Source: a candidate division FCPU426 bacterium (GTDB lineage Bacteria; Oederibacteriota; Muellerivitia; Muellerivitales; Muellerivitaceae). From it: a stretch of 64,000 bases of DNA. The translations under genes were made by a program, and so were the position numbers. Location: the NCBI GenBank assembly GCA_963719085.1, contig CAVRAL010000001.1, forward strand, positions 1,216,001 to 1,280,000, in the 5' to 3' direction. The notes beneath the pieces are model-generated. The model did no database searches and was not told the DNA's origin. It saw only the letters and a list, made by a program, of their open reading frames with translations. Positions 21,578 through 60,986 of the stretch are shown in pieces; position 1 is the stretch's first letter, and each line of letters begins with the position of its first letter.

Positions 21578-22336
21578 TTACGAAGCGGGCTGAATCACCA
21601 AACGGTCCGACATGGTCTTGCCCCCGGCCTTGAGGACCACCGAATAGATTCCGGGGGGAACCGGACGGCCCGATTCGTCCATTCCATCCCAATCAATCTC
21701 ATGAATCCCCTTCTGCCACTCCCCCTCATAAAGACGGCGGATCGGAGTTCCGTCCGCGCCCGCCACCGAGAGCGTCACGGATTGTTTTTGCTCGGATTCA
21801 ATCGAGAGATAAATCCGGTCACCTTCCTGAAAAACCAATTCTTTACCCGCCGCCGAAAGACTAGGAGAGACGCCGATGGCGTCCTCCCGGACCGCGGGCG
21901 TCAAGAGGGCCCGCACCATGACTTGCCGAATCGGGGCGCTCAAGGGCTTTGGTTCCGGACGGAAATTCTCGCGCGAAACCTTCACGCGAGCCGGCTTGTG
22001 TCGCAAGGTTTGTTTCGCCCAATCCCCCAAAAGAAAAAGAAACCCTAAAGCCGCCAATCCCATCAATCCCAAACCAATCCAAGGCCGAAATTTGAATAGT
22101 ATGGATTTCCAGGAAACCCCGGATCGTGCGGCGCCCGGCTTAGGCTCGGGTGCGGTTAAACCCTTTTGCGCGGGCGGCTCGTCCCGTATATGGCGGAAAG
22201 CTTTTTGGACCGCCTCAGTCACTTCATTTGAAAAAGAGGGATCTTTACGGGTCAGGCGCTCGAATTCCCGGCGGGCTTCGGGACTGAGACTGCCTTCAAG
22301 GTAGAGTTGAATCAAAGTTTCTCGGGGCCAAGGCAT
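21578..22336 (-). CDS. Anti-sigma-like membrane protein with C-terminal FlgD-Ig domain (orphan)
   Basis: LIQLYLEGSLSPEARREFE anti-sigma-type helix, one TM, then IRRLYEG...WDGMDESGRPVPPGIY; same layout as 59714-60370. Confidence 0.7.
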   Translation of the reverse strand: MPWPRETLIQLYLEGSLSPEARREFERLTRKDPSFSNEVTEAVQKAFRHIRDEPPAQKGLTAPEPKPGAARSGVSWKSILFKFRPWIGLGLMGLAALGFLFLLGDWAKQTLRHKPARVKVSRENFRPEPKPLSAPIRQVMVRALLTPAVREDAIGVSPSLSAAGKELVFQEGDRIYLSIESEQKQSVTLSVAGADGTPIRRLYEGEWQKGIHEIDWDGMDESGRPVPPGIYSVVLKAGGKTMSDRLVIQPAS

Positions 22337-22376: not shown

Positions 22377-22399
22377 AAAACGCCCAGGGGCGTTTTTTT
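22377..22399. terminator. Hairpin terminator at the flgE-like stop
   Basis: AAAACGCCC-AGG-GGGCGTTTT. Confidence 0.55.
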
Positions 22400-24266
22400 A
22401 AGCGGCTGAAATTTGTCCCAAGGCGGCCAAAGTTTGAAGCGTGCTATTAATCGTGCTCACCATGCGGGCATTGGCCTCAAAACTGCGCTGGGCCAGGATC
22501 ATGTTGGATAATTCCACGGTCAAGTCCACATTGGAGTTTTCCAAAGCGCCACCCAGGATGGTCCCCAGCCCTTCTTTGCCGGCCACCGTCTCTTCCATCG
22601 TGCCCGAACTCGACGAAGGGGTGAAATAACCGTTGCCCACTTGTTCCAACCCTTCCGGATTATTCACGGTGGCCATGGCTAGTTGGGCCAGCGCCTTAAT
22701 CTGGCCGTTGGTGAAAGTTCCCTGGATGGTCCCGGTTTTGTCCACCGCCAGGCTTTCCAAAGTTCCGTCGGCGTATCCGTTTTGGGAGACCGCGTGCGCG
22801 GTAAATTGCGGGACGTAGGTATTGATTCCATTGACATTTTGATAGCCGCCTTCGGCGTCGCTGATAAGGCCATCCCGTCTTCCCAAACCCAGTATTCCAA
22901 AGGTCCCGAAATTAAGCTTTACCGCCAATACCTCAGCGCCCTGGGTCGGCAAGGGAGAGACCGGGGGAAATTGGTTTAAAACCGGAAGATAAAGCGTGGG
23001 CATGTCCATAAAGTTTCCATTGGGAAGCCCCGGCGGCGACGGCGGCCCCACGATACCCCCGCTGGAAGCCAGCGATCCATCGGTGTTGAACCAAATAAAA
23101 TCCCCGGCCGCTTGCTCTCCCGGAACCCCCTTGTCATATCCGGTGACCCCGCCCATGACGCCCTCCCAAATGCCGGTTCCACCGATTAAATTCGCGGTCG
23201 AGACCGGTTTGCCTCCGGTCGTATCAAAAGCGTACCAGGCGTAACAAGCCTGGCTGGGCCCCTGCGGGGCGTTTTGAGTCAGGCTGTTGACTTGATAAAA
23301 CTGAACCGTGATCTGGTAAGGATTCCCCAAAGAGTCATAAACCGTTTCCTCGGTCTGGGTGGCCGGGGGAACCGGCGGCTGTTGTTCCCAAGCGTAGTTC
23401 CCCGCGTTGGCCTGGACGTCGGCCAAATCAATGATCCCGTTATCCAAGGGAACCGGAGTGTTCGTGCCGGGAGCGGGCAGGGATAGGTTCGCCACTTGGG
23501 ACAGCGCGAAACCCCCGCCCGCCACCGGCTGGGTGGTCATCCGCGTGGTATCGATTCCATTGGGCGGGGGAATCTGGGCCAGCATCAAACCCACCGGCAA
23601 GGTAAATCCAGCCGGCGGGTCCAAATTAAAAACATTGGCTTGCTGGAACGAATCCAGGTTGCCTTGGAAATTTACCTGGGTCGTGGCCTTCGGGGGGATT
23701 GTCATCGAGGGATTGATGTTGATGTTGGTGATATCGGCCGGATTGGTATCATTCAAGGTCAAATCGGCGTTGGTGATGACCGCCGGTTGTCCCGGCACGT
23801 TGGAAAAACTGTTGATGACCGTTTTACTGTATTGAAGCGTCGCGTTGAATCCCTGGATTAATCCTCCGTTGTTGTCCACCAGGTTCCCTTCACTGTCGAG
23901 CGAAAGGTCCCCGTCCCGGGTCAAAAAGGTTTGGTCTCCCTGCTTGGCCACCAGAAATCCGTTTCCCTGGATGGCCACATCCAAATCCCGGCCGGTGGTT
24001 AGGATATTGCCTTGGCTGAACAAACTATCGATCTGGGCCAATCCGGAACCCAATCCGATTTGCTGGGGATTAGTCCCTCCCAATCCATCGGAAGGATTGT
24101 CGGCCGCGCCGGAAGAGATCGCTTGACCGAAGGAATTCAAAAACTCCGCGCGGCTGGTTTTATAGCCAATCGTGCTGACATTGGAAATATTATTTCCAAT
24201 CACGTCCAGCCAAGTGCTGTCGTTGCGCAAACCGGAAATCGCGCTATAAAGACCCTCAAGACCCAT
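22398..24266 (-). CDS. flgE: Flagellar hook FlgE-like protein with long Pro/Gly-rich inserts
   Basis: SGL...LDVIGNNISNV.T.GYK, DVAIQGNGF, TRDG, VYDSLG, LENSNVDLTVELSNMILAQRSFEANAR. Confidence 0.85.
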   Translation of the reverse strand: MGLEGLYSAISGLRNDSTWLDVIGNNISNVSTIGYKTSRAEFLNSFGQAISSGAADNPSDGLGGTNPQQIGLGSGLAQIDSLFSQGNILTTGRDLDVAIQGNGFLVAKQGDQTFLTRDGDLSLDSEGNLVDNNGGLIQGFNATLQYSKTVINSFSNVPGQPAVITNADLTLNDTNPADITNININPSMTIPPKATTQVNFQGNLDSFQQANVFNLDPPAGFTLPVGLMLAQIPPPNGIDTTRMTTQPVAGGGFALSQVANLSLPAPGTNTPVPLDNGIIDLADVQANAGNYAWEQQPPVPPATQTEETVYDSLGNPYQITVQFYQVNSLTQNAPQGPSQACYAWYAFDTTGGKPVSTANLIGGTGIWEGVMGGVTGYDKGVPGEQAAGDFIWFNTDGSLASSGGIVGPPSPPGLPNGNFMDMPTLYLPVLNQFPPVSPLPTQGAEVLAVKLNFGTFGILGLGRRDGLISDAEGGYQNVNGINTYVPQFTAHAVSQNGYADGTLESLAVDKTGTIQGTFTNGQIKALAQLAMATVNNPEGLEQVGNGYFTPSSSSGTMEETVAGKEGLGTILGGALENSNVDLTVELSNMILAQRSFEANARMVSTINSTLQTLAALGQISAA

Positions 24267-46275: not shown

Positions 46276-49164
46276 TCAACGCAGGACTAAGACCTTGAGA
46301 ATTTGACTGAAGGACTGGCTCCCTTTCACGCGGACCCTCAGGTAATAAAGTCCGTTAGCCACCGGCAGGTCCTCGTGATCCCGCAGGTTCCAACTCAGAG
46401 TGGTCTTTCCGGAAATTGGGAAGCTTGCGCAGCCGATCTTCCGGAAAGCGGTGGTGAAAACGTCAAAAGACAAAACCGCGTTTCCCGGCGCCTGAACGTC
46501 AAAATAAACATTCCCTCCCGTCGAAACCGGGTTGGGATAAGGGGGTCCCAGGGTGACTTCGACAGGCCCCAGGGTGGGACTGGGTGTGGGGCTCATGGTA
46601 ATGGTGGGGGTTGGGCTGACGGTCGGCGACGAAGTCATAGTGGGTGAAAACGTTAGGGTCGGCGTCAAGCTGGGGGTCGGGGTCCACGTGGCCGTAGGGC
46701 TTAAGGTAATCGTGGGGGTCGCCGTCGGGGTAAAGGTCGGGGTCCCTGTCGGCGTCAAGGTGGACAAGGCGCAGCAATTCGAGGTATAGGAGCCGGAAGC
46801 GCCCACGGACCAAACCTGTCCCTCATAGGAAAGGCTCACTTGCGCGAATTGGGAAACCGGACCAAAGGGCGTTTGCGCCAGGGTTTGGGTCCAATTGGCC
46901 CCGTCCTGGGAAACCCAAACATCCGAGACCGGCCCCGAAGCCGTTTGGCCCCCCATCACCCAAATGGAGTTCGCGCAAACCACCGCCAGGTGATAGGCCC
47001 GGGGGGAAAAAATCGCTCCCGGAGTCGTGGGATTGGATTGGGTCCAATTGATTCCATCTCCCGTCGACCATACGTCATTGGTCACTCCCCCGGCGGTTTG
47101 GCCTCCCAAAACCCATAACCGGTTGTTGAAGGCCACCACCGCCAATCCTTTGCGGGCTGAAAAAGGCGGCGTAGCCGCGGCGCTCCAAGAGGAACCGTCC
47201 GAAGAACTCCAAGCGTCATTGGTCAAGCCCGAGGCGGTTTGTCCGCACAACACCCATAAATTATTTTGGAAAACCGCCGATCCGAAATCCAACCGGCCGG
47301 CGAATCCCGCGTTGGAAGTTCCCAAGTTGTAGTGGAAGCCGTCGAATGAAAACCAAGTATCGTTTTGGTAAGTCGCGCCGTTCAAAAGCCCGCCCAACAC
47401 CCAAATGTAATTTTTAAAAGCCGCCACGTTATAGTGGATTCGGTTCAACAAAGGCGCTTGCGAGGTGCCGAACAGGCTCCAACCCATCGCGGGAATCCAA
47501 TGGGCGATCGTGATGGGATTGCTTAGGGCTCCTCCGCCTAACTCAAAAGGCCGGGGACCATTGCCGTCCCCCACGTCAAAAACCGCTCCGCCCACCGATT
47601 GCAGGTCGTAAGTGGTTTGAGGCGACCAAAAAGCCCCCGGTTGGGACAGGCAGGCCGCCGGGGTGGGCGTGGCGGTCGCCGGAAAAGGCGTGGGCGTGAT
47701 CGTTAAGGCGGGCTGGGCGCCCAAGGCCAAAGCGGATAAAACCGCCGCGTTCAAATCGAGCCGACCCCAACCACTGGTCTGGTTGTAGGTCCCCGGGGCG
47801 CCGATAATTTGGTGGGCCGTATTTTCCAGTATCTGAACCACCTGGGTGTTGGCCAAAGTCGGATTCAGGGCGAAAAGCAGGGCCGCCGCGCCCGCCACCA
47901 TGGGCGCGGCCAGCGAAGTCCCCGAAGCCACGGCGTAATTGTTGTCGCAGGGATCAACTTGAAAGGCCGTATCCACCGTCGGCGAGGGGCAATTGAGGAT
48001 GCAGCCAAAAAAATTATCAGCGGTATCAAAAGTATTGAAGAGGCTGACCAGCGCTCCGCCGGGCGCCACCATTCCCATGCCGGCTCCCGTTTGGGTGTAA
48101 GAAGTCACCGTATCGGCGGGTCCCACCGCGCCGACGCCAATCACGCCGGGAAAGGCCGCCGGATAACTTAAAGGCACCCCGTTGCCGGCGTTTCCAACCG
48201 CCGCCACCACCACGCAGCCCTGATTCAGCGCGAAGGTGACCGCTTGTCCTTCCAAGGGATCATTGGCGGTAGTCCCCAAAGACATATTGATGACCTTGGC
48301 TCCATGGAGCACGGCGTAATAAATCCCCTCGACCACCGTACCCGTGGTGAGCGAGCCCGTGGAATCGGCCCCCTTCACCGGCATGATCTTCACCAATCCC
48401 GGATAGCCGGCCACCCCCACCGTGCCGCCATTGAAACTACCGGCGGGAACCGTCCCCGCGGTACAAGCGTTTGTTCCGCCCGCGTTGTTCCACTGGGCCG
48501 CTAAAATGCCGGCCACCATGGTTCCATGGCCGTGATTGTCCACCGTATCGGTGGTATCCCCGCCCCAATCGCCGGAAGAGTTATAACCGGGGATAAAAAG
48601 CGAGGACGGAAGATCCGGATGCCGGGTTTGGGAATAGTCCGAGGCCACTCCCGAATCCAAAACCGCCACCGTCACCGGGTTGGCCGACGGACAAGCCAAA
48701 TTAGCCCCCAGTTGAGCCCAAGCCGACGGCGCGTTCACGAGAAGATAGGGCCAATTGACATTTCCGTTGCCGGTGACCACGCCGCAAGCCGGGCTGGGAA
48801 TAACGCCGGAGGTAAAGTAGGCGTCGGAGGCGGCGGCCGGAGGCGCGCAGCTTTGAAACAATTGATAGCGATAATCAGGCTGGGCCAGCGCCACGTCCCC
48901 GAGTGCCTTGACCAGTGCCAAGGCCCTTGGCACTGTCATCCCGCTCTTAAGATAGACTTGAAGAACGTCGGAGCGAAACGCGAGCGGCTGGTAAGTTCCC
49001 AAAAGGGACTGAACGCGGCCTAGGTCCAATGAGGAACCGTTCGGCTTGAATTGAACCAGGATTTCATCGGGCAAATAGGCGTCGGAAGTTGAAACCGCCG
49101 CGGCCGACGGCCAAGCCAGTGACAAGGTCAGCAGGATCAAAGCGAACCGGAGGATGAATACCAT
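46276..49164 (-). CDS. Secreted S8 subtilase with Kelch-like repeats, T/P linker and C-terminal sorting-like domain
   Basis: [24 protein letters not shown] triad; repeats F.N.LWVLGG...NDVW.S.DG..W; tail YPNP...ANGLYY...KVLVLR. Confidence 0.9.
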
Positions 49165-50296: not shown

Positions 50297-50332
50297 AAAA
50301 AAGCCCTTAAACATTTCTGTTTAAGGGCTTTT
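50297..50332. terminator. Intrinsic terminator after the GH30 gene
   Basis: AAAAGCCCTTAAACA-TTTC-TGTTTAAGGGCTTTT perfect stem. Confidence 0.8.
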
Positions 50333-50369: not shown

Positions 50370-53300
50370 TTATTTTACGATCGCGACTTTCACGGTCGAG
50401 GTGCTGGACTGAACCCCGGACTTCACCGTCACCGTCACGATATACAGCCCGCTGGACAAGGACTGGTTTTCCAAGTTCCGCTCGTTCCAGTAGAGGCTGT
50501 GGCCCGAGGACTCGAAACTGGTCTCCTCCACGGTCTTCACCCAGACCAATTGTCCGTCCAAGCTGTAAGCCCGGAAGGTCAGGACCCCGCTCGGATCAAT
50601 TCCCGGCGATGTGCTGACGGCTTTCGCCCCGATCGAGGAGGCGCTTCCGGTCACATTCACCGACAGGTTCACTCCGTTCCCCGTGGAAGGGTTCGGGAAT
50701 GCCACCACATTGGCCGTCTGCGCGGCCGGAGCCGTCACAACCGGTTCCTGTCCCCAAATCAGCGATCCGTTCAGATATCCGGTGATTTTGGTCGACAAGG
50801 TGAAGCTGGTCGAAGCCGTGTAGCTCCAGTCGTTATTCTGAAGCATGTTGCTCCAATCGCTCTTGTTGAAACGGCTTTGGATTTGCACGCTCTGGCCCGG
50901 CTGCAGCGTCAGGTTCCCCGCGAACTTATAGCTCACGTAATCGGTCTGGCCACCCAAAGTCGTGGCCACCACCGAGGTCAGCACATCCGCCGTGACCGTG
51001 CTTCCCGCGGGCATCCATCCCGCCCAGTCCACCCAGGTTTGGATCGATTGGCCCGTGCAGTCGCAGTTGAACCAGTAGCGCACTTCCACATTATTCAGGT
51101 TCAAAGGCGCCGTCCCCGTGTTCTTCACCTCAATCTGGGGATGGGGGCTGTTGGTGGTATTCGCCGTGACTCCCGACAACAAATACACCGTCAAGGATCC
51201 CGTGCCCGTAGGCGTATTCGTCGGAACCAAGGTGGGCGTCGAAGTCGGCGGCAAAGTCGCCGTCGAAGTCGGGGGCACCGGCGTATTCGTCTTAGTCGGA
51301 GTCGCCGTCGCGGTCGGAGGAACCGCGGTGGCTGTCCAAGTCTTCGTCGCTGAGGCGGTCGACGTGACCGTTAAAGTCGCGGTCGGAGGCACCGGCGTCG
51401 AAGTAAAGGTCGGCGGAACCGGGGTGTTCGTCGCCGTTGCCGGAACCATTGTCAGCGTCCCAATCGGCGTATCCGTCGTCGTGGGCGGCACGCTCGTGTC
51501 CGTCGGACTAGCGGTCGGCGTCAAAGTCGCCGTCAGAGTCGGCGGCACCGGCGTATTTGTCTTAGTCGCGGTTGCCGTCGACGTCAAAGTTGGAGGCACT
51601 GGCGTGGCTGTCGCTGAGGCGGTCGCGGTGGCCGTCGGGCTGGCAGTCGATGTACGGGTCGGTGTGGCGAGTGCCGGCTGCGGAATCAACTGCAAGGCCT
51701 CCACCATCGCGCTCGTGTCCGTACTGCTGGTCCCCAAGAACTGAATGGTGACCGCTCCCGCGCTGGGGGAGATATTGTTGATCACCTCGTTCAAGGCCTT
51801 ATTCGCGCCCACTTGGGCGAAAACATCCAGGTTCGTTAAAACCGTGACCCCGTTTACGGCAACATCGAACACCCGGTCGCCGACCGCCTCATCGCCCGAA
51901 TAGGTCTCGGCGAAAAGCAGGGTGGCTTGATAGCTCCCGGTCGGAACATGAAACACGTAGCTGAAATTGGAGCCGTAACGCTGGGTGTCATAAAGCGTCG
52001 AATCGTTGGTTCCCGCGATCGTCCCGCCTTCAGCGATGGTGCTGCCCGCCGTAAATTGGGTATCGGCCGACCAAGCGTTCCCGAGCGAATCGGTATAAGC
52101 CGGGCCGCCCGCGTTCACGCGCCAGGTGGAGGCGATAATCGGGGCCGGCGTGTTGGTAAAAGTCGCGGTTGGGGTTGGAGGAACCGCCGTAGCCGTCCTC
52201 GTTGGCGTGGCCGGCAAGGGTGTGGACGTCGAGGTGGCAACCGAGCCACCGTTGTTGACGGCCACAAAACTCGTCACACTGGAACCGGTCAAGCTATAGG
52301 TGAAGGAATTTCCCGACACCGGCACAGCCGACTTCTGGACTAGGTTGTTGCTGCCGTCGGTCACCCAGGGGATGACGGACGTGACATTGACCCCGTTCAG
52401 GCTGAAGGTCTGGCTGGTGGTCGAGCTGTTGTTGTTGATGGCCACGAAAACGATGGTCTGCGGTGAAGACGTATTGGTGTTCTTGAAGGCGCTGACCAAG
52501 ACGCCGGAAGTCGGGCTCGCGGTCGCCCCCATGCGGTAGTATCCGGGACGGATGAACTTGCTGTAATTACCAAGAACATAGGCCTTGATGGTCAGGGTGT
52601 TGTTGCTGATCAGGTCGGTAAGCCACCAATAGTGAAAAGCGTTCATGCCGGAATTGACCAGAGAGCTTTGGATCCAACCCGCCTCCTGCAGGGCTCCCGG
52701 AATATCGGTGGTATTCCCCGACATCTCGGTTTCCCACCATTCCTGGTTCGTCACATGGGTGAAGCCAAAGGAAGCCAGGGGCGCCGGATTCGGGGTGCCA
52801 TAAAGATGGGTTCCGATAATGCCGATCATGGGGGCCACGGTCGCATCGTCCATGGCGGTCGCGGCCAGGTTCATGCCGTCGGTATTGTCGGGCTCAGGAA
52901 GCATGATTTTGGTCGAAAGACCCGCGTTTTGGATGGCGTTATGGAAAGCCTGCGCGTAAACATCAAACTGGCCGGCCGTCCAAAGACAGGCTTCGTAAGT
53001 CGGGTTAAAGTTCGGCTCATTCTGGATGGAAAGGGCGTAAAGGTTGATCCCGTGGCTTTGGCAATACTGGATGAACGAGACTTGGTAAGAGGCCAATCCC
53101 GTGTCGGCGCTGTTGGGGGATCCGGAGCTGGCGCCCAGGAAAGTATCGTTGCTGGCGCCGCCATCGACGTTGTCATTGGCCTTGTATTGGGCCGGGGGGG
53201 ACCACTCGGTAGCCCATAAAAGCACGTTGGGATTGACCGAATGGGCCGTCACGAGACTATTCACTTCCGACGAGAAGTTATTGGTGGGATCGATCCGGGC

Positions 53301-53537
53301 CCGCAGGGAGCTAAGCCCGATATGCCCGTTCACGTTGTCGTCGGCGAACAGGGCTTGGCCCTGGCTTCCGATGGCGCTCCAGGCGCTGGAGGCCCCGATG
53401 CAATGGATGAATTGGTTGGTTTGGGTGGCGTCCACCGTACAGGTGCCCGCCCACGCTTTCGAAAAACTCGCTAAAACCAGAAGTAAAAAAGACGCGGTAA
53501 AAATTTTTTTTATTTTCAAAACAGACCTCCATCTCAA
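50370..53537 (-). CDS. GH30 xylanase-like enzyme + malectin + T/P linker + CBM3 + C-terminal sorting-like domain
   Basis: WSPPA..K.N, ALSIQNEP (acid/base), W.TE (nucleophile), SKFIRPGY.R; RVNAGG...FAE.Y...R.FDV; VRYWF...K.DWSN..Q.NDWSY; FPNP...GLY...KVAIVK. Confidence 0.9.
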   Translation of the reverse strand: MRWRSVLKIKKIFTASFLLLVLASFSKAWAGTCTVDATQTNQFIHCIGASSAWSAIGSQGQALFADDNVNGHIGLSSLRARIDPTNNFSSEVNSLVTAHSVNPNVLLWATEWSPPAQYKANDNVDGGASNDTFLGASSGSPNSADTGLASYQVSFIQYCQSHGINLYALSIQNEPNFNPTYEACLWTAGQFDVYAQAFHNAIQNAGLSTKIMLPEPDNTDGMNLAATAMDDATVAPMIGIIGTHLYGTPNPAPLASFGFTHVTNQEWWETEMSGNTTDIPGALQEAGWIQSSLVNSGMNAFHYWWLTDLISNNTLTIKAYVLGNYSKFIRPGYYRMGATASPTSGVLVSAFKNTNTSSPQTIVFVAINNNSSTTSQTFSLNGVNVTSVIPWVTDGSNNLVQKSAVPVSGNSFTYSLTGSSVTSFVAVNNGGSVATSTSTPLPATPTRTATAVPPTPTATFTNTPAPIIASTWRVNAGGPAYTDSLGNAWSADTQFTAGSTIAEGGTIAGTNDSTLYDTQRYGSNFSYVFHVPTGSYQATLLFAETYSGDEAVGDRVFDVAVNGVTVLTNLDVFAQVGANKALNEVINNISPSAGAVTIQFLGTSSTDTSAMVEALQLIPQPALATPTRTSTASPTATATASATATPVPPTLTSTATATKTNTPVPPTLTATLTPTASPTDTSVPPTTTDTPIGTLTMVPATATNTPVPPTFTSTPVPPTATLTVTSTASATKTWTATAVPPTATATPTKTNTPVPPTSTATLPPTSTPTLVPTNTPTGTGSLTVYLLSGVTANTTNSPHPQIEVKNTGTAPLNLNNVEVRYWFNCDCTGQSIQTWVDWAGWMPAGSTVTADVLTSVVATTLGGQTDYVSYKFAGNLTLQPGQSVQIQSRFNKSDWSNMLQNNDWSYTASTSFTLSTKITGYLNGSLIWGQEPVVTAPAAQTANVVAFPNPSTGNGVNLSVNVTGSASSIGAKAVSTSPGIDPSGVLTFRAYSLDGQLVWVKTVEETSFESSGHSLYWNERNLENQSLSSGLYIVTVTVKSGVQSSTSTVKVAIVK

Positions 53538-55614
53538 ATTACGGCGCCGGATAAATCAGCCTTAACCAGCAATGCCCGTTGCTTCCCTACCCCAACCACT
53601 TTCCCCCATCATCAAAAAATGAATCACCTCAAAATCAGGACCTTCGTGCCAGCCGTACTGCTCTGGCCTTTTGATTTCACCGTCACCGTCACGTAATAAA
53701 CCCCATTGGCCAAAGACGCCCCGGCCAAATCCCTCTCATCCCAATAAATCACATGGTTCCCCGACGAGCCCAAACTGGCCCCGGTCACCGTGGTGGTCCA
53801 GATCTGCCGGCTCGCCAGCGTGAACACCCGGAATGTCACCTGCGCGTCCGGATCCACCACCGTGGGCGAGCCCACTTCCTGCGCGGACGCCCCCGAGGCG
53901 CCCGCGCCAGCGGTCAAGTTGACCGAGAGGTTGACCCCGCTCCCCGTGGAGGGATTCGGAAAAGCCACCACGCTGGCTGACTTCAAGGCCGAAGTCACGG
54001 CGGTCGGTTCTTGCCCCCACACCAGTACCCCGCCCAAATACACCGTGATTTTGGTCGTCTGGGTAAAACTGGTGTCCGCCGCGTAGCTCCAGTCGTTGCT
54101 CTGGGTCATGTTGCTGTAATCGCTCTTGTTGAACCGGCCTTGCACCTCAATAAACTGACCCGGTTGCAATACCAAGTTCCCGGAAAACTTGTAGCTGATG
54201 TAGTCGGTCTGCCCACCCAGAGTCGTGGGTTGAACCGTCGTCTGGACATCCCCCGTGACCGAAGTCCCGGCGGGCATAAGTCCGGCCCAGTCGACCCAAG
54301 ACTGCAGGCTTTGGCCCGTGCAGTCGCAATTGAACCAGTAGCGCACTTCCACGTTGTTTAGGTTCAAAGGCGCCGTCCCTGTGTTTTTAACCTCAATCTG
54401 GGGATGGGGGCTGTTGGTGGTATTCGCCGTGACCCCCGACAACAAATACACCGTCAAGGATCCCGCGCCGGCGGGAGTCGCCGTATTCGTCGGCGCCAGA
54501 GTGGGCGTTGAAGTCCACGTCGCTGACGCGGTCGGCGGCACTGGGGTCCTAGTTAAAGTAGCCGTGCTGGTGGATGTCGGAGGCACCGCGGTCGCGGTCC
54601 AAGTCTTCGTGAAGGTATTCGTGGGTGTCGCTGTCACAGTCGATGTCACCGTTGAGGTCGCGGTCGGCGGCACCGGAGTATGGGTCGCCGTGAACGTGGG
54701 CGGCAATGGGGTATTCGTCAAAGTTGGCGGCACCGGGCTCGAGGTCCAGGTAGGCGTATCTGACGCCGATGCCGAAGCTGTAGGCGAGGCAGTTTCGGAG
54801 GCGGTGGTCGTGACCACTAAAGTAGCGGTGCTGGTAACGGTCGGCGGCAAGGTCGCCGTCAGAGTCGGCGGCAAAGTCGCCGTCGAAGTCGGCGGCACCG
54901 GCGTATTTGTCCTAGTCGCGGTCGACGTCAATGAAGCCGTCGACGTTAAAGTCGGAGGTATCGGCGTAGCCGTCAAAGACGGCGTGGCCGTTTTCGTTGC
55001 CGTAGCCGTAGCCGAGGCGGTTGGGGTAGACGTCGCGCTAGCCGTCGCTGTGCGGGTCGGCGTGGCGAGCGCCGGCTGCGGAATCAACTGCAAGGCCTCC
55101 ACCACGGCGCTCGTATCCGGGCTGTTCGTGCCGATGAATTGGATCGTCACCGCTCCCGCGCTGGGAGCGATGTTATTGAGTACTTCGTTCAGGGCCTTGT
55201 TCCCTCCCACTTGGGCGAAAATATCCAGGTTCGAGATGACCGTCACCCCGTTCACGAGAACGTTGAAAATACGGTCCCCAGCCGCCATATCACCCGAATA
55301 GGTTTCGGCGAAAAGTAAGGTCGCCTGATAGGTTCCGGTTGGAACATGGAAGATGTAGCTGAAATTCGAGCCATAGCGCTGGGTGTCATAAAGCGTGGAA
55401 TCGTTGGTTCCCGCGATCGTCCCGCCTTCGGCGATGGTGCTGCCCGCCGTAAATTGGGTATCGGCCGACCAAGCGTTCCCGAGTGAATCGGTATAAGCCG
55501 GGCCGCCCGCGTTCACGCGCCAAGTGGAGGCGATAATCGGGGCCGGTGTGCTGGTGAAAGTCGCCGTTGGAGTAGGAGGAACCGCCGTAGCCGTCCTCGT
55601 TGGCGTGGCCGGCA
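50743..55614. repeat. Two modules duplicated between GH30 and GH62 genes: 51655-52216 / 55053-55614 (malectin) and 50743-51202 / 54006-54465 (CBM3)
   Basis: Constant offsets 3398 and 3263 at both ends of each block; long identical DNA runs. Confidence 0.85.
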
Positions 55615-56683
55615 CGGGCGTCGGGGTAGTTGCCTTGTTCGCCTTGGAGGTCGCCAAGCCAAGCTGCCAGGGAATTAAGTTGTAGGAACTGGCCCCATTA
55701 TTGGGATTGTCGCCCTGGTAGAGAAAGGTCAGGTTGTTGAGGTTGATGGAATCGGTCTGGTCATCGCCGTCAATGACCGCCCCGCCGCTGCTGAAGTCCG
55801 AGGTCCAGTTCGAGACGCCGGAATTAAAGGTGACATTGTGCGAACCCAGAAAAGGGGTGTTGAGGTTCGCCGTATTGCCCAGCGGCGTCCAGGTTCCGCC
55901 CAGGCTGGTGGCGGTCAAGGCGCGGAAGAAGCGGTGGCCGTCGCTGCCGATGCACTCAATGTCGGCCAGATAGCCCCCGCCATTTTCCACAGTATAAACA
56001 TTGTCCGCCTCAAAGAGATTGAACTCCGTATCCGTGTAGACGATGACAGGCGTGTTAAATCCATTGGGAAAGTTCGCGAGCGAAGTTGAGCTACGGTAGA
56101 AGTTCCCGTTGTCCCCGCAGAAGAACAGGTAGGCGTTGGTGGAATCGCAGATGACCCAGAAATCTATCCAATTGCTCACGCTCGAGGGCTGAGACGCGAA
56201 GAAATTCTTAGGCGTCGTCCAATTTTGGGGCTGGGTCGGGTCGCTATTGGTGGAGTACTGGGGTTGTCCGCTCTGAAAGATCAGGTACCATTTGTTCTGG
56301 GGGGCGAAATAAAAAACTTGGGGCGCGGTGTGATAGCCCGAGAAACCGGCGGTGTTGTCCATGAAATAAGGCGTGGCGGCGCCGGCCTGGCTCCAATCGC
56401 TGAAGTGCAGGTATTCCATGCCGTAGTTGCCGGCCGAGTTGACCGAAGAGGCGTAAACGATGTATTGGCCGTTATAGAAGACCGTGGAAGGGTCCTTCAC
56501 GGCGATCATGTTGTGGGTGGAGTCGCTCTTGGGAGTGATGAGGGGGGCGGTCGATGTCCATGAAAAGGAGGTGGGAATGGTCTGGGCGTCGAGCGCGGAA
56601 ACATTCGCCCCGAGTAGTAGGATGATCAGGCTCGGCAGAGCCGCTTTTAAAGATTTCAATTCCATCTCCTCAGTTCTTTTCAC
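53624..56683 (-). CDS. GH62 alpha-L-arabinofuranosidase + malectin + T/P linker + CBM3 + C-terminal sorting-like domain
   Basis: KDPS, APQVFYFAPQNKWYL, WIDFWVICD..NAYLFF..DNG, LFEA..VY, R.FR..TA.SL.G.W, FLYQG; FPNP...ANGVYY...KVLILR; start may be ATG 56665. Confidence 0.9.
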   Translation of the reverse strand: MKRTEEMELKSLKAALPSLIILLLGANVSALDAQTIPTSFSWTSTAPLITPKSDSTHNMIAVKDPSTVFYNGQYIVYASSVNSAGNYGMEYLHFSDWSQAGAATPYFMDNTAGFSGYHTAPQVFYFAPQNKWYLIFQSGQPQYSTNSDPTQPQNWTTPKNFFASQPSSVSNWIDFWVICDSTNAYLFFCGDNGNFYRSSTSLANFPNGFNTPVIVYTDTEFNLFEADNVYTVENGGGYLADIECIGSDGHRFFRALTATSLGGTWTPLGNTANLNTPFLGSHNVTFNSGVSNWTSDFSSGGAVIDGDDQTDSINLNNLTFLYQGDNPNNGASSYNLIPWQLGLATSKANKATTPTPVPATPTRTATAVPPTPTATFTSTPAPIIASTWRVNAGGPAYTDSLGNAWSADTQFTAGSTIAEGGTIAGTNDSTLYDTQRYGSNFSYIFHVPTGTYQATLLFAETYSGDMAAGDRIFNVLVNGVTVISNLDIFAQVGGNKALNEVLNNIAPSAGAVTIQFIGTNSPDTSAVVEALQLIPQPALATPTRTATASATSTPTASATATATKTATPSLTATPIPPTLTSTASLTSTATRTNTPVPPTSTATLPPTLTATLPPTVTSTATLVVTTTASETASPTASASASDTPTWTSSPVPPTLTNTPLPPTFTATHTPVPPTATSTVTSTVTATPTNTFTKTWTATAVPPTSTSTATLTRTPVPPTASATWTSTPTLAPTNTATPAGAGSLTVYLLSGVTANTTNSPHPQIEVKNTGTAPLNLNNVEVRYWFNCDCTGQSLQSWVDWAGLMPAGTSVTGDVQTTVQPTTLGGQTDYISYKFSGNLVLQPGQFIEVQGRFNKSDYSNMTQSNDWSYAADTSFTQTTKITVYLGGVLVWGQEPTAVTSALKSASVVAFPNPSTGSGVNLSVNLTAGAGASGASAQEVGSPTVVDPDAQVTFRVFTLASRQIWTTTVTGASLGSSGNHVIYWDERDLAGASLANGVYYVTVTVKSKGQSSTAGTKVLILR

Positions 56684-56920
56684 TTCTCGATCATGGCCTT
56701 CGAGGTCAGTGATCCAAATCCAAGGTCACCTGGATCCGGTCCTCCAAAAACGGTTTAAAATAAAATTTAAAAGTCAAACTGGGGCCCAACTGACAAAAGC
56801 CCTGACAGAATGGGTTGAGATGGCGGGGGCATGGTTCTGTCCAATAGATGGGTGTTTGGGGAAAAGACTCTATTCCCTAAAAACGATTAAAATTACGGAT
56901 TGAATGGGAAATCGGTAAAC

Positions 56921-58231
56921 CTAAGGGCTTTGCGGGTGGGCGGCTTCGTACTGGTCCAACCAAGCTTTCAACTTCACATCCGACGGGTTCAACCGGTAGG
57001 CCTGCTCCAAACATTGAACCGACAACTGGGTCTTCCCGGCCTTCCAATAAGCCAAGCCTAATTGATGCCAAGCCTCGGCATCCTGGGGATTGTCTTCGGT
57101 GGCTTTCTCGTATTGTTGAATCAAGGCCGCGGCCGCGAAATCCGTCACGGTGGCCGGGCCGCTGGCGGGAACCTCAAATAGCACCTTCACGGAAGATTTG
57201 GCCGGGCCGGGCGTGACCGCGGGCACAGGCGTGGGAACCGGCGTCACGAAAACCGTCACCGCTTTGACCGGAACGGGTGTTGGATTGGGGAAATCATAAG
57301 AAAGGCTGATCCGGTGGGAAGTCCCCAAGTCCCCATAGGGGACAAAAGCGTAATCCAAAGTGAGCGGCTCCAGCCGGATTCCCGCCCCCGCGCTGAAATT
57401 GGTAAAGCCCGAGACTTGGTTGTCCGAAAGCGGAAGTTGATAGCCCAGCCTCAAGAAATAGTTTTTTTGGAATCCCGCCTCGATCCCTCCCTGGAGCCGG
57501 CTCACCCCCTGGGGCTCGTAATCACCCGAGAAAGCCGTCAAAAAAGATAGGTCGCTGTTGAGATGAAAAAGACAGGAAAGGCCGCCTTTCAAATCGCTGG
57601 CGAGGGCTTGACCCGACACGGGCGTCCCAAAGCCGGAATAAACCAGGCCCAACCGAAAATCTTTCTCAGGGATCCACAACAACCCCGCTTCCCCGGCCAG
57701 GCTGGAGTAAAGTGAATCCACTATTTTTTGCTGGGTCCCATAAAGCGCCACGCCCATCGAAAAACCCTTCGCCCATTCCTTTCCCCATCCAATACTCAAT
57801 GCGATGTCGTTATCCAAGTAGGTACCCTGGTCGACCCCTGAGGAATCCCGCGCGTCCAGGGCTCCCCAAAAGACATATTGGAGCGCCCCCGCGAATCCGC
57901 CCAGGCCGCCCGCGGGCAGGCCCACTAAAAGGGTTTCCTCAAAGGTGCTTCCCAAGTAGCTGTTGTGGTTCAAGCTGATGCGGGTGTCGGCCAGGCCCGA
58001 GAGGCCCGCGCTGTTGAAAAACAAGGCCGAGTTATCATCGGCCAGACCCGCGAAAGCGTCCCCCATCGCGTCCGCGCGGGCGGAAGCCCCCAGCGCGCTT
58101 AAGGGCGTTACCAGCGACGCGTTGGGGGAAATTACCTGCCCCCAAACCACCGCGCCGAAAAAAAACAAAAACACTCCCCCGCGTCCCAACGAGACAAAAC
58201 CCGCGCGTAAAAAATAAAAAGAGCGCGTCAT
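56921..58231 (-). CDS. PorV/PorQ-like (UPF0164, FadL-type) outer-membrane barrel fused to Pro linker and TPR
   Basis: G.SARA.AMGDAF.GLADD.SALFFN.AGL; LRLGY; GAG...LDYAFVPYGDLGTSHRISLSY.F; TPR AEAWHQLG..Y. Confidence 0.85.
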   Translation of the reverse strand: MTRSFYFLRAGFVSLGRGGVFLFFFGAVVWGQVISPNASLVTPLSALGASARADAMGDAFAGLADDNSALFFNSAGLSGLADTRISLNHNSYLGSTFEETLLVGLPAGGLGGFAGALQYVFWGALDARDSSGVDQGTYLDNDIALSIGWGKEWAKGFSMGVALYGTQQKIVDSLYSSLAGEAGLLWIPEKDFRLGLVYSGFGTPVSGQALASDLKGGLSCLFHLNSDLSFLTAFSGDYEPQGVSRLQGGIEAGFQKNYFLRLGYQLPLSDNQVSGFTNFSAGAGIRLEPLTLDYAFVPYGDLGTSHRISLSYDFPNPTPVPVKAVTVFVTPVPTPVPAVTPGPAKSSVKVLFEVPASGPATVTDFAAAALIQQYEKATEDNPQDAEAWHQLGLAYWKAGKTQLSVQCLEQAYRLNPSDVKLKAWLDQYEAAHPQSP

Positions 58232-59646
58232 TTTTTCACGGCCAGGATTTGGGTTTGGAACGACTGCGTTTGTCCCGAGTCATAATGAAGGACCACGTGA
58301 TAAAAATAATGGCCGGGCGCGAAGGAACGCACATCCAAGGAACTGGAAGCTTCCCCGGCGGCCTTAGCCTCATTGACCGTGGCCGCCAAGTTGCCCCAGG
58401 CATTCCAAACCTGGATGTCGGCTTTTCCCGGCTGGGCCATGGTGTACACAAAGGTGACCGTGGGACCCGAGGTCGGATTGGAGTAAACGTAAGGCTGGTT
58501 CACCGGCACCGGCGGGGTAGCCACGGGCGTGGGACAAGCGGAACCGATCGCCAGGCTGGCGTAAGCGGCGGTATTTAAATAGTCGTCCTCATTACCGTTA
58601 AGCATCATTTGACCGTCCCGGCAATTGCCCCCGTTGTGGTTGATATCCAATCCCACGTCAAATCCCAGCTCCGTTCCGTCCGAAGGCGTCATCCCCAAGG
58701 TCGTCCAAGGAATGGAGGCTTCCACAATGTACCCGCCCGCGGTCGTTGTGGTTTTCATCACCACGCCGGTTACGCGGCCGTTGCTTTCCACCGGCGTCGT
58801 GTCGCCCCACCGGAAAAAATACTCAAAATCATGGGACGTAATGGTCAGCGACTGGTCATTGGCGGTGTTCAAGTAAAGCTCCACGGTCGAGTTATGCCAA
58901 AGTGTGCCGGTTCCCGTGTTGGTCAATTGACTGTCCGTCACTTGGGCGCCGAGATAAAGGTTGCTGGAGTCCCATAAAAATTTGACCAGCGCCGAGGAGC
59001 CAAAACTCTGCCCGGAAACCGTCTTGGTGACCGAGGCGAAGGGGCTCCCGCTGTTCCAGGCCCAATCATCCAGGATCCCATCCACCACCGCGGTTTGTTG
59101 GCAGGCGTTGAGGATTTGAGGCGTGGGCGTGGGCGCCGGCAACGCGCCGGAAAAAAGATTCTCATGGGGGACGGGGCTCAAAGCTTGGGAAGCGCTTTGC
59201 CATATCAGTTGAATTTGGGGCGTTCCCCCGTTGGCGAAATAATCGACTTCAATCGGAACCTTGGTTCCCGCCGTCATCGGAACGGTTCCCGTAAAGGTCG
59301 ACAAGGTCGTGTTTTCAGTCCACTGGCTCACCAAGACTTGTCCGTTGACGATGACGCTCACCCCGCCATTGACATCCGCCGTGAAGGTGTAAGTCTCGCT
59401 ATAGTCCGCTTCAATTTGGCCGGTCCACTTGACCGAAAAGGCGCTGGGGGAAACCCCGGGATTGGGCGGACACCCTTGCCAAAAATACTCGACCGCGGGA
59501 TCCACTTCCGTCACCACCGCGGTGTTGAAATTGACGCCGTTGTAATAAACCGCTTGAAGGCCGTCCCCGTTGGTTTGGGAAAGTCCGAGGGAAGGAATCA
59601 TGGATAGGAAAAAGACGAGGAAAAACTCAAAACGTTTTAAATCCAT
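58228..59646 (-). CDS. Secreted PA14 + CBM9-like non-catalytic protein with C-terminal sorting-like domain
   Basis: GL...YY...F, FSVKWTGQI...Y.ETYTF, VPIEVDYF (PA14); VDG.LDDW.W, WD..NLY, GY.VE..IPW..LG (CBM9); YSNP...APG.Y; ATG 59646 after GGGAGG; ATGA overlap with barrel gene. Confidence 0.85.
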   Translation of the reverse strand: MDLKRFEFFLVFFLSMIPSLGLSQTNGDGLQAVYYNGVNFNTAVVTEVDPAVEYFWQGCPPNPGVSPSAFSVKWTGQIEADYSETYTFTADVNGGVSVIVNGQVLVSQWTENTTLSTFTGTVPMTAGTKVPIEVDYFANGGTPQIQLIWQSASQALSPVPHENLFSGALPAPTPTPQILNACQQTAVVDGILDDWAWNSGSPFASVTKTVSGQSFGSSALVKFLWDSSNLYLGAQVTDSQLTNTGTGTLWHNSTVELYLNTANDQSLTITSHDFEYFFRWGDTTPVESNGRVTGVVMKTTTTAGGYIVEASIPWTTLGMTPSDGTELGFDVGLDINHNGGNCRDGQMMLNGNEDDYLNTAAYASLAIGSACPTPVATPPVPVNQPYVYSNPTSGPTVTFVYTMAQPGKADIQVWNAWGNLAATVNEAKAAGEASSSLDVRSFAPGHYFYHVVLHYDSGQTQSFQTQILAVKK

Positions 59647-59713
59647 CGCAAGAAAAACCTCCCGAGGAATTAATCTTATTATGCTTCCAGTCGGAAAGTT
59701 AAACCCTAAAAAT

Positions 59714-60370
59714 TTATTTGAGATTGAGGCGGATAGCCTTAGTTTGGTGGGAATCCCCGGTTTGAACGTCAATCCTATAGTTCCCCGCGGGCGCCGGTTC
59801 CCCCGCCGAAAGATTCCCGTCCCACTGGAAAGCCCTTTGGCCCGGCTCCACAAAACCGGTGAATAAGTGCCGTACTTCTTGGCCCGCCGCGTCCAAAACC
59901 CGGACCGTCACCAATGACTTTTCCCGTGTGTCCACTACCACGCTTAATTCCTCGCCTTCCGCCGAAGGAGCGGTTGCTTCGGAGTGAACAGGCGCCGACG
60001 GGGATTTCAGGATGACTTTAGGCTCGAGAACCCGCGAAACAGGCGCCATCGGCGCGAGGGGCTGCGGCGCGGCCGGTTGGACGATTTCAGAAACCGGCCA
60101 GAATTTCCAGACCAACAGACCCACCCCGGCGGCGACCGCCGCCGCCAAGCCCGCCCAACCCAGGGCTCCCAGTTTTCCGGCCGCGGGCGCCCATTTTTGA
60201 AGCGAACCGGGCAATTCGGGCAAAGGCAGTCCCGTCGCCAAATAATGGGTCTCAAGCAAGCCCTCAAAGCGCAAAGCCGAGTCCGGGGATTCTTGCAACA
60301 GCTTCCCCAACAAGTCCGCCTCGGACTCGCTCAGTTCCCGCTCAAAAAACGCTTGGATCAGGTCAACCAT
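59714..60370 (-). CDS. Putative anti-sigma factor with TM and FlgD-Ig C-terminal domain
   Basis: LIQAFFERELSESE helix; TM; Pro linker; VTVRVLDAAGQEVRHL...WDG...G.PAPAGNY; overlaps ECF stop. Confidence 0.78.
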   Translation of the reverse strand: MVDLIQAFFERELSESEADLLGKLLQESPDSALRFEGLLETHYLATGLPLPELPGSLQKWAPAAGKLGALGWAGLAAAVAAGVGLLVWKFWPVSEIVQPAAPQPLAPMAPVSRVLEPKVILKSPSAPVHSEATAPSAEGEELSVVVDTREKSLVTVRVLDAAGQEVRHLFTGFVEPGQRAFQWDGNLSAGEPAPAGNYRIDVQTGDSHQTKAIRLNLK

Positions 60371-60935
60371 TTCGCCCTTCCTCAATCATCTGTTCAACGA
60401 GGATCTTCAAAGCCTTTTTGCACCGCGACAACCGGGACATCACCGTCCCCAGCGGAATCTTCATCGACTTGCCGATCTCGATATAAGTCTTTTCTTCCTT
60501 ATCGCGCAAAATCACGATCTCCCGGCACTCGGCGCCGATCTTGTCCAAGCCTTTGTCGATCAGCTGAAGCTTGGCGGCCTTGTCCTCATCCCGGGACTTT
60601 TGAGCCTCGCCCTCCAGGGACTTATGCCGCAAAAGGTTTTCCAAATCCGCTTCTTCTTGAACCACCATCTTGGCCCGCGACCGGTACCGGTTATAACAAA
60701 GATAGATGCAAATCTGCGTCAACCAAGTGCCCAGCGCCGACCGAAACTCAAAAGCCGGGAGCTTTCGAAAGGCGATCATAAAAGCTTCCTGCACCAGGTC
60801 TTCCGCCTCCGAATCCCGATAGCCTAAGAGAAACACGCAATCCTTATAGAGGCGTTCCCGGTATTGGACGTAGAACTGGGTCTTAGCCGCTTCATCGCCC
60901 TGGAGAATTTTTTGAACCAACTCCCGGTCTTCCAA
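60363..60935 (-). CDS. ECF sigma factor
   Basis: AEDLVQEAF, FEFRS...TWL..I..., REIVILRD..E.TY.EI...M.IPLGTVMSRLSR. Confidence 0.95.
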   Translation of the reverse strand: MEDRELVQKILQGDEAAKTQFYVQYRERLYKDCVFLLGYRDSEAEDLVQEAFMIAFRKLPAFEFRSALGTWLTQICIYLCYNRYRSRAKMVVQEEADLENLLRHKSLEGEAQKSRDEDKAAKLQLIDKGLDKIGAECREIVILRDKEEKTYIEIGKSMKIPLGTVMSRLSRCKKALKILVEQMIEEGRNG

Positions 60936-60986
60936 ACATCCCCCTGAACATTAGCCTTTTGAAGAGGCCTTTTATTCCATTTTAAG

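Follow-up and report, generated by a model that had tools for sequence, protein, structure and literature searches.

A candidate cell-surface signaling module without a TonB-dependent receptor, built from type IX secretion-type parts, in a candidate division FCPU426 bacterium

The genes considered here lie in a 64,000-nucleotide stretch of DNA (the window) from a candidate division FCPU426 bacterium (assembly GCA_963719085.1, contig CAVRAL010000001.1, positions 1,216,001 to 1,280,000), whose genome of 3.04 Mb is 99% complete. Six minus-strand open reading frames at 50370..60935 encode a sigma factor of the extracytoplasmic function (ECF) group, a putative anti-sigma factor, a secreted PA14/CBM9 protein with a C-terminal domain (CTD) of the kind used in type IX secretion systems (T9SS), an outer-membrane barrel of the PorV family and two hydrolases, GH62 and GH30 (Table 1). 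The best reading of the first four genes is a cell-surface signaling system made of T9SS-type parts and operating without a TonB-dependent receptor, in which we infer the relay of the signal. An earlier note on this DNA, made from the sequence alone, had proposed a polysaccharide sensing and secretion locus of six co-oriented genes, and its description of the layout is borne out by the reading-frame check and by Pfam/NCBIfam scans. The sigma and anti-sigma genes overlap by 8 bp, with the sigma stop (60363-60365) inside the start region of the anti-sigma gene, and the PA14 and barrel genes share an ATGA at 58228-58231. Five of the six genes end in an Ig-like domain or encode the barrel, as had been described. 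The likely starts of the anti-sigma (ATG at 60370), PA14 (59646) and GH62 (56665) genes differ from those of the longest reading frames, and a gap of 256 bp separates the barrel gene from GH62.

Table 1. Genes and other features of the locus (positions in the window)
Feature	Position	Strand	Basis
ECF sigma factor, 190 aa	60363..60935	-	Sigma70_r2/r4_2; TIGR02937, 78.6 bits
Anti-sigma factor (putative), 218 aa: three cytoplasmic helices, transmembrane helix, Pro-rich linker, periplasmic Ig domain	59714..60370	-	AlphaFold2 (AF2) model, Foldseek, profile match, hydropathy
Putative surface sensor, 472 aa: signal peptide, PA14, CBM9, type A CTD	58228..59646	-	Pfam/NCBIfam
Barrel of the PorV family, 14 strands, followed at the C-terminus by a Pro/Thr linker, a conserved strand and TPR	56921..58231	-	NF033709, AF2, Foldseek
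Strand of the barrel tail, VKVLFEV (in the family phi-x-phi-x-F-x-phi); possible partner of the anti-sigma Ig domain	57170..57190	-	Conservation; disordered in the monomer model
GH62 arabinofuranosidase - malectin - CBM3 - CTD	53624..56665	-	Pfam, E 6.5e-59; PDB 5b6s, E 8e-90
GH30 xylanase - malectin - CBM3 - CTD	50370..53537	-	NF052681 XynC, E 1e-49 (below cut-off); PDB 5cxp, E 3e-47, and 4fmv, E 1e-43
Predicted autoregulatory ECF promoter, -35 GGAATA / -10 GGCTAAT	60950..60979	-	Matrix score 20.7 (trained on other genomes)
Predicted ECF promoter of the enzyme operon (GGGAATAG...AAACACCCAT)	56848..56877	-	Matrix score 17.8
Terminator-like 15-bp hairpin and T tract, 3' of GH30	50299..50332	-	Consensus scan; overall scan not above shuffles, positional support only

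The absence of SusC/D, of a TonB-dependent receptor and of RsgI from the locus also stands. SusD was not found anywhere in the 99% complete genome, while a control Bacteroides genome gave a match. Seven TonB-dependent receptors are encoded in the genome and none in the locus, the nearest starting some 9 kb upstream of the sigma gene, outside the window, together with ExbB/ExbD-like genes. The RsgI family is absent from the Pfam/NCBIfam scans of the locus proteins, and the sigma factor matches ECF-type models only, not SigI.

Two other sigma genes of the genome are close paralogs of this one, and each lies in another copy of the same four-gene group (hereafter a quartet). For the gene beside it, the role of anti-sigma factor is inferred from position and layout. 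It has one transmembrane helix at residues 72-89 in the AF2 model; by hydropathy, a single hydrophobic segment starts at residue 69. Its sole Pfam match at E<=0.05 is FlgD_ig (E 3e-13), and a FecR-type domain is absent. The modeled Ig domain has six strands and is CTD/FlgD-like, with FlgD as the top Foldseek matches. Aligned to the CTD (profile probability 83%), it begins at strand 2 and lacks strand 1, the YPNP strand. A same-family anti-sigma gene with the N-terminal helices and the FlgD-Ig domain also stands alone in the window (21578-22336, minus strand), directly behind a gene for the flagellar hook protein FlgE (22398-24266) and with no adjacent sigma gene; a second similar FlgE is found at C1:546450. 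In the ESM Atlas, look-alike clusters of about 260 aa (scores <0.9) carry Por_Secre_tail in 34% of their members (Bacteroidota) or zf-HC2 in 45% (Ignavibacteriota), and CTD-tailed anti-sigma factors may exist beyond this lineage.

The barrel scores over the cut-off of the PorV/PorQ family (NF033709, 99.9 bits versus 90) and under that of the PorV-proper equivalog (NF033710, 39 bits versus 250). AF2 models it as a plugged barrel of 14 strands (pLDDT, the confidence score of the model, 87.7), followed by a disordered linker with a strand-like motif and then by TPR helices. The best Foldseek matches are the PorV chains 8gl6_F and 6h3i_F (E 1e-14 and 5e-12), with FadL next (E 7e-8); a weak match to UPF0164 and none to the PorP/SprF family complete the picture. 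Profile models and fold thus agree with the PorV-like nature that had been claimed for it, and the model supports a PorV-type CTD shuttle with a predicted periplasmic tail. By established barrel topology, an even strand count should place the C-terminal tail in the periplasm. The nearest named barrels come from metagenome-assembled genomes of Elusimicrobia, Goldiibacteriota, Firestonebacteria and Aerophobetes.

The strand motif of the tail is present in 53 of 59 quartets, and in five genomes with barrels enumerated it occurs in 17/18 barrels beside a sigma/anti-sigma pair, 3/47 other long-tailed barrels and 0/30 short-tailed ones, counts over related rows and so not a statistical test. Two tailless barrels of the same clade (L120, L121) have a CTD cargo and lack the sigma pair. 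Conversely, the gene directly behind the same sigma/anti-sigma pair in L077 encodes a protein that is no barrel but has the same strand and TPR tail. The full order there (L077:4393-7971) is sigma/anti-sigma, the strand+TPR non-barrel protein, then a protein with TPR and a small outer-membrane barrel, a variant from another family that lacks the PorV-type barrel. A distant fourth quartet subfamily (L183, L202, L215), with a longer anti-sigma factor and a divergent sigma factor, keeps the strand as V-x-L/M-x-F-x-V.

The first four genes recur as a module, of which this genome holds three copies. The second (C4:1039158-1043670) has a PL1+malectin passenger, the passenger being the part of the cargo ahead of its CTD, and belongs to a pectin-rich cluster in which GH28 comes next; the third (C4:937169-941307) is rearranged. 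The loci examined in other genomes were the best 60 of the listed anti-sigma places plus those found via the barrel. They gave 59 non-redundant complete quartets in three arrangements: 26 sigma-anti-cargo-barrel, 21 cargo-barrel-sigma-anti and 12 sigma-anti-barrel-cargo. The conservation in relatives on which the earlier note had staked its proposal is therefore one of content, while the order varies. The arrangement is not chance, to judge from its recurrence across the family. Anti-sigma matches occur in 51/99 genomes of the phylum and, within the family, in 30/30 other genomes; many of the weak matches are Ig-only. Among the loci examined, the sigma/anti-sigma pair is found outside the family only in one genome (G039; L077, L083), and up to seven paralogous modules are present in a single genome (G068). 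An unfiltered anti-sigma search returned 271 clusters at E<=1e-30, and most of the matches listed are full-length anti-sigma factors. Pairwise identities of the four parts are correlated (Spearman 0.68-0.75; permutation maxima 0.11-0.29), which shows that they are inherited together, not that they touch.

What changes from module to module is the passenger. In this window the CTD of the cargo matches TIGR04183 at 24.4 bits (cut-off 23), and its CBM domain is CBM9_1, with a match to CBM9-2 of T. maritima (1i82). Across the quartets the cargo CTDs are type A-like (48/52 match TIGR04183, and two match TIGR04131 weakly). The 59 cargos comprise 24 with PA14+CBM9 (among them that of L055, a split gene with an intact near-copy in L242), two with PL1+malectin, 14 with a signal peptide and CTD only, and 19 with other domains. 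The CTD-only cargos measure 118-160 aa (L067-L070, L075, L078, L086, L089, L092, L094, L096, L097 and others). The passenger goes with the neighboring enzymes. Among 17 orthologous PA14/CBM9 loci, the gene that follows encodes GH30 in 15, another CBM3 protein in one and, in this window, GH62. Cargos with DUF11+lectin adjoin PL4, GH53 and GH28, those with PL1+malectin adjoin GH28, and NHL propeller cargos adjoin giant NHL proteins of 2000+ aa. In 5/5 PL1 cargos, N, S or G replaces an Arg two residues before a conserved Pro, an Arg that is kept in three aligned solved pectate lyases and that we take to be the catalytic base. Because this position is replaced, the PL1 cargos look like binding-only pseudo-enzymes, as sensors should be. 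The earlier reading is to be widened here: the module is not xylan-specific and belongs to a family of modules, some of them without any passenger. Many secreted proteins, encoded in the window at 56921-59646 and by the paralogs, seemingly start with Gln past the signal peptide, which resembles the pyroglutamate rule of Bacteroidota.

The two hydrolases can be attached to the sigma factor through their predicted promoter. GH30 is closest to the GH30_8-type XynC group, and its alignment shows the catalytic motifs NEP and ETE; the malectin-CBM3-CTD tails of GH62 and GH30 share 74% DNA identity over 1.7 kb. The motif GGAATA-N16/17-(C)ACTAAT stands upstream of 56/57 sigma genes in relatives. With a matrix trained only on sigma-upstream sites from other genomes, a score >=17 within 300 nt after the barrel was obtained in 15/17 orthologous loci and in 2/790 control intergenic regions; L064, one of the two loci below that score, has a shorter spacer in its motif. 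The exact pattern has 26 matches in 14/99 genomes, all in the family, and its reversal has none. Thirteen lie before a family sigma gene, nine between barrel and GH30, two before a stand-alone GH30 and two before CTD-cargo operons; since the pattern was derived from these loci, in-locus matches are circular and the informative ones are the stand-alone GH30 (twice), another family sigma gene and the CTD-cargo operons. Recognition of this motif by the sigma factor, before its own gene and before the GH62-GH30 operon, is thus a supported prediction. As an ECF-type promoter is predicted before both the sigma gene and the first enzyme gene, the latter at the frequencies just given, GH62 and GH30 very likely form its regulon, in line with the dependence on the ECF factor that the earlier note had assumed. 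A global regulon of carbohydrate-active enzymes was rejected, the other CTD enzymes of the genome mostly lacking the site. For this reason, and because the generic matrix is near noise genome-wide, the regulon looks local. That matrix is unfit for listing a regulon, and the assignment relies instead on the exact pattern and on the positional test. Downstream of the locus (46276-49164, minus strand) lies a gene for an S8 subtilase with a Kelch propeller and a CTD, with no ECF motif upstream.

The genome encodes about 20 PorV-family barrels (22 matches) and gives 45 FlgD_ig matches, and pairs of a cargo and a dedicated barrel without a sigma gene are common in it. PorV proper is a single shared shuttle, unlike these paralogs. 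An SprA/Sov-like gene of 1948 aa (TIGR04189, E 8e-35, under the family cut-off) was found; together with the gene for a 1499-aa fn3/CTD protein that comes after it, it occupies G000:C1:939018-949364 (L291), and a second weak SprA match is at C5:154435. A model search of the genome for PorU matched CTD ends only, and GldM gave no match in the genome, although its controls were silent as well. Together with some 20 barrels, and with neither PorU nor GldM found, the SprA-like gene suggests a reduced T9SS-like export system. The CTD of the window cargo matches two paralogous quartet cargos (E 1e-33 and 3e-12) and not the enzyme CTDs. Because this CTD has a class of its own, distinct from that of the enzymes, the barrel is most likely dedicated to the neighboring cargo, by analogy with type B cargo/shuttle pairs. 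The barrel as exporter of GH62 and GH30 was rejected on the same difference in class, and it probably does not export them. The earlier idea of a secretion locus for the enzymes thus gives way to that of a signaling module, the enzyme CTDs being of a different class and the SprA-like gene lying elsewhere.

Taken together, we assign a probability of about 0.6 to the reading that the four genes form a trans-envelope ECF signaling module with the two hydrolases as its local regulon. The PA14-CBM9 protein would be exported by the SprA-like translocon and kept, through its CTD, on its own barrel. In the periplasm, the strand and TPR tail of the barrel would bind and stabilize the strand-deficient Ig domain of the anti-sigma factor, the tail strand possibly supplying the strand that the Ig domain lacks. 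Binding of PA14-CBM9 to insoluble (arabino)xylan would disturb this contact, the anti-sigma factor would be degraded by RseP-type proteolysis (an RseP gene is present in the genome), and the freed sigma factor would induce the module together with the exported xylanase and arabinofuranosidase. Paralogous modules may follow the same scheme for pectin and other targets by means of a swapped passenger.

Several observations weigh against this reading. Export is presumed, since the SprA-like gene is under its cut-off and neither PorU nor GldM was found. About 9/60 anti-sigma loci have no barrel in the examined stretch, some stretches being incomplete, and the 14 CTD-only cargos offer no ligand-binding part. 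One divergent PA14/CBM9 cargo (L056) is paired with GH44, so that PA14+CBM9 is not strictly linked to xylan. The association of the tail strand with the sigma pair is not phylogenetically independent, most quartet barrels being one clade, and the generic promoter matrix is genome-wide barely above noise (47 matches at score 14 versus 26-39 in three shuffles). Complex prediction for barrel, CTD and anti-sigma Ig domain scored 0.54, against 0.00 for the best control and 0.00 with the barrel replaced, with at least 55% contact agreement between runs and a partner pLDDT of 73. The mark for this score was reached by 116/157 solved complexes and 2/215 mismatches, and at <=0.60 by 18 solved complexes and both mismatches; the value therefore falls in a weak band and counts as weak support for the reading, and no interface was produced. 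Because the anti-sigma domain is CTD-like, the score could also be explained by likeness to solved PorV-CTD complexes. Finally, a flexible Pro/Thr linker of 30-100 residues between barrel and tail makes the transmission of the signal hard to explain; pulling or clustering on the insoluble substrate is a guess. The split sensor advanced in the earlier note gains from passenger swapping, the Arg-less pectate lyase and the tail strand; for the physical relay from barrel to anti-sigma factor the complex score offers weak backing.

The CTD-only cargos are also the natural starting point for an explanation by secretion or envelope feedback, in which the anti-sigma factor would read an un-exported CTD, or an empty or unassembled barrel, and the passenger would merely be useful cargo. 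The CTD-like domain of the anti-sigma factor fits such a role, and a precedent is offered by PorA, whose CTD, according to PMC12152298, binds PorY in the periplasm and thereby switches on PorXY-SigP. However, passenger type tracks the class of the neighboring enzyme, the PL1 passenger lacks its putative catalytic Arg, and the seven paralogous modules of G068 are hard to explain by one secretion state. As a general account we find this unlikely, though it deserves some weight, and for the CTD-only subfamily it may well be true. Another possibility dispenses with the relay: barrel and PA14-CBM9 protein would be members of the regulon that display an adhesin, and the anti-sigma factor would itself sense a periplasmic cue such as an imported oligosaccharide. 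The sigma-less cargo/barrel pairs, the anti-sigma genes without an adjacent barrel (the orphan at 21578-22336 and loci of relatives) and the TonB-dependent receptors elsewhere in the genome all speak for it. It does not account for a tail strand confined to barrels adjacent to an anti-sigma gene and moving with the anti-sigma gene onto a non-barrel protein, nor for a quartet kept through three rearrangements, and neither a conserved importer in the loci examined nor SusD in the genome was found; we regard it as a doubtful account.

A FadL-like channel for small molecules, with the TPR tail as a scaffold for periplasmic uptake, appears highly improbable. FadL does come next among the Foldseek matches and UPF0164 is matched weakly, and three Treponema FadL-like proteins with periplasmic TPR tails are known (PMC8407342, in part). 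The PorV chains nevertheless score far better, and in the quartets no more than 300 bp separate the barrel from a CTD protein, whose CTD class co-varies with the barrel (rho 0.75).

Returning to the signaling module, its closest known counterparts include the cell-surface signaling systems (FecA-FecR-FecI, FoxA-FoxR-FoxI and SusC-linked ECF/FecR), with which it shares an outer-membrane protein with a periplasmic extension, a one-pass anti-sigma factor and an autoregulated ECF sigma factor, whose promoter is here predicted from conservation. Unlike these, it has a 14-stranded PorV-family barrel in place of the TonB-dependent receptor, a C-terminal strand and TPR instead of an N-terminal signaling domain, and a CTD-like Ig domain instead of a FecR domain; the ligand would be bound by a separate, exchangeable protein, without uptake. 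In the Fox system, according to the available sections of PMC11637429, the receptor extension protects the anti-sigma factor before the signal. The clostridial SigI/RsgI systems likewise have many paralogs with differing sensing domains (PA14, CBM) and matching enzyme regulons. Inactive-enzyme sensors are also known among them. The present module differs in its ECF sigma factor, in the lack of an RsgI domain and in a putative sensor that is a separate secreted protein, with a signal peptide, across the outer membrane. For RsgI, the signal is thought to free a non-covalently held beta-strand, with RseP cleavage following (PMC10328401, in part). The mechanism proposed here, in which the tail holds the anti-sigma factor until substrate binding loosens it, resembles both the protection in the Fox system and this freeing of a strand.

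A cargo gene adjoining a probably dedicated barrel is shared with T9SS type B cargos and PorP/SprF, where the cargo is kept on the surface by the cognate shuttle encoded next to it (PMC12618676 and PMC9143113, each in part). Here, in contrast, the CTD is type A-like, the barrel is of the PorV family with a fused tail and goes with a sigma/anti-sigma pair, and neither PorU nor GldM was detected in the host genome (the GldM controls being silent). In the PorA-PorXY-SigP system of Porphyromonas gingivalis, as far as portions of PMC7712824 and PMC12152298 describe it, a PorV-bound CTD protein also feeds ECF-dependent transcription; there, the partner of the CTD is a histidine kinase, and the CTD, by way of the shared PorV, regulates the T9SS itself, whereas here a dedicated barrel, an anti-sigma factor and enzyme regulons are involved. 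The Treponema proteins TP0548, TP0859 and TP0865 have, C-terminal to a barrel of 14 strands, a TPR bundle in the periplasm, but are proposed as nutrient importers, and no CTD cargo or sigma pair is described in the available part of that work (PMC8407342).

The module lacks defining features of TonB-dependent signaling, of SigI/RsgI, of type B cargo/shuttle pairs and of SusC/D loci, and is, in its proposed working, a blend of the four. No description of it was found in the literature searched, subscription papers lying outside the coverage. In the ECF reclassification (Casas-Pastor 2021, PMC7826278), FlgD does not occur in the available part of the main text, nor do FlgD, Por_Secre, PA14 or UPF0164 in the part available of one supplement. 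We rate the module as a new variant of cell-surface signaling from non-homologous parts. The operon of a second PA14+CBM9+CTD protein of this genome (G000:C4:1007798-1013197; L002:12798-18197) also encodes a TPR-tailed PorV-family barrel, a HAMP histidine kinase and an OmpR-type regulator, and the order barrel-kinase-regulator appears again in L233 (Pfam-checked) and, judged by size and N-terminal sequence, in L195 and L211; this kinase operon may apply the same principle of sensing through a two-component system. More broadly, and tentatively, at slightly less than an even chance, one may envisage a TonB-independent, two-piece signaling family in which a shuttle barrel serves as transducer, an exchangeable CTD-tagged sensor sits outside, strand donation completes a CTD-derived anti-sigma factor inside, and an insoluble polymer touched outside is signaled through both membranes with no uptake, with a parallel two-component version.

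Should the strand-donating, TonB-free relay be true, the module would form a class of its own. A new anti-sigma family, with a promoter predicted for it, is put forward by the analysis, and part of the large set of PorV-family paralogs outside Bacteroidota may have a non-secretory role. Small and modular, the system can be tested in parts and could be reprogrammed as a biosensor by swapping the passenger. To our knowledge, Gram-negative sensing of outside polymers requires a TonB-dependent receptor and usually the import of fragments. If the proposed reading is true, an insoluble substrate would here be sensed without import, with parts of a secretion system, in a lineage devoid of SusD.

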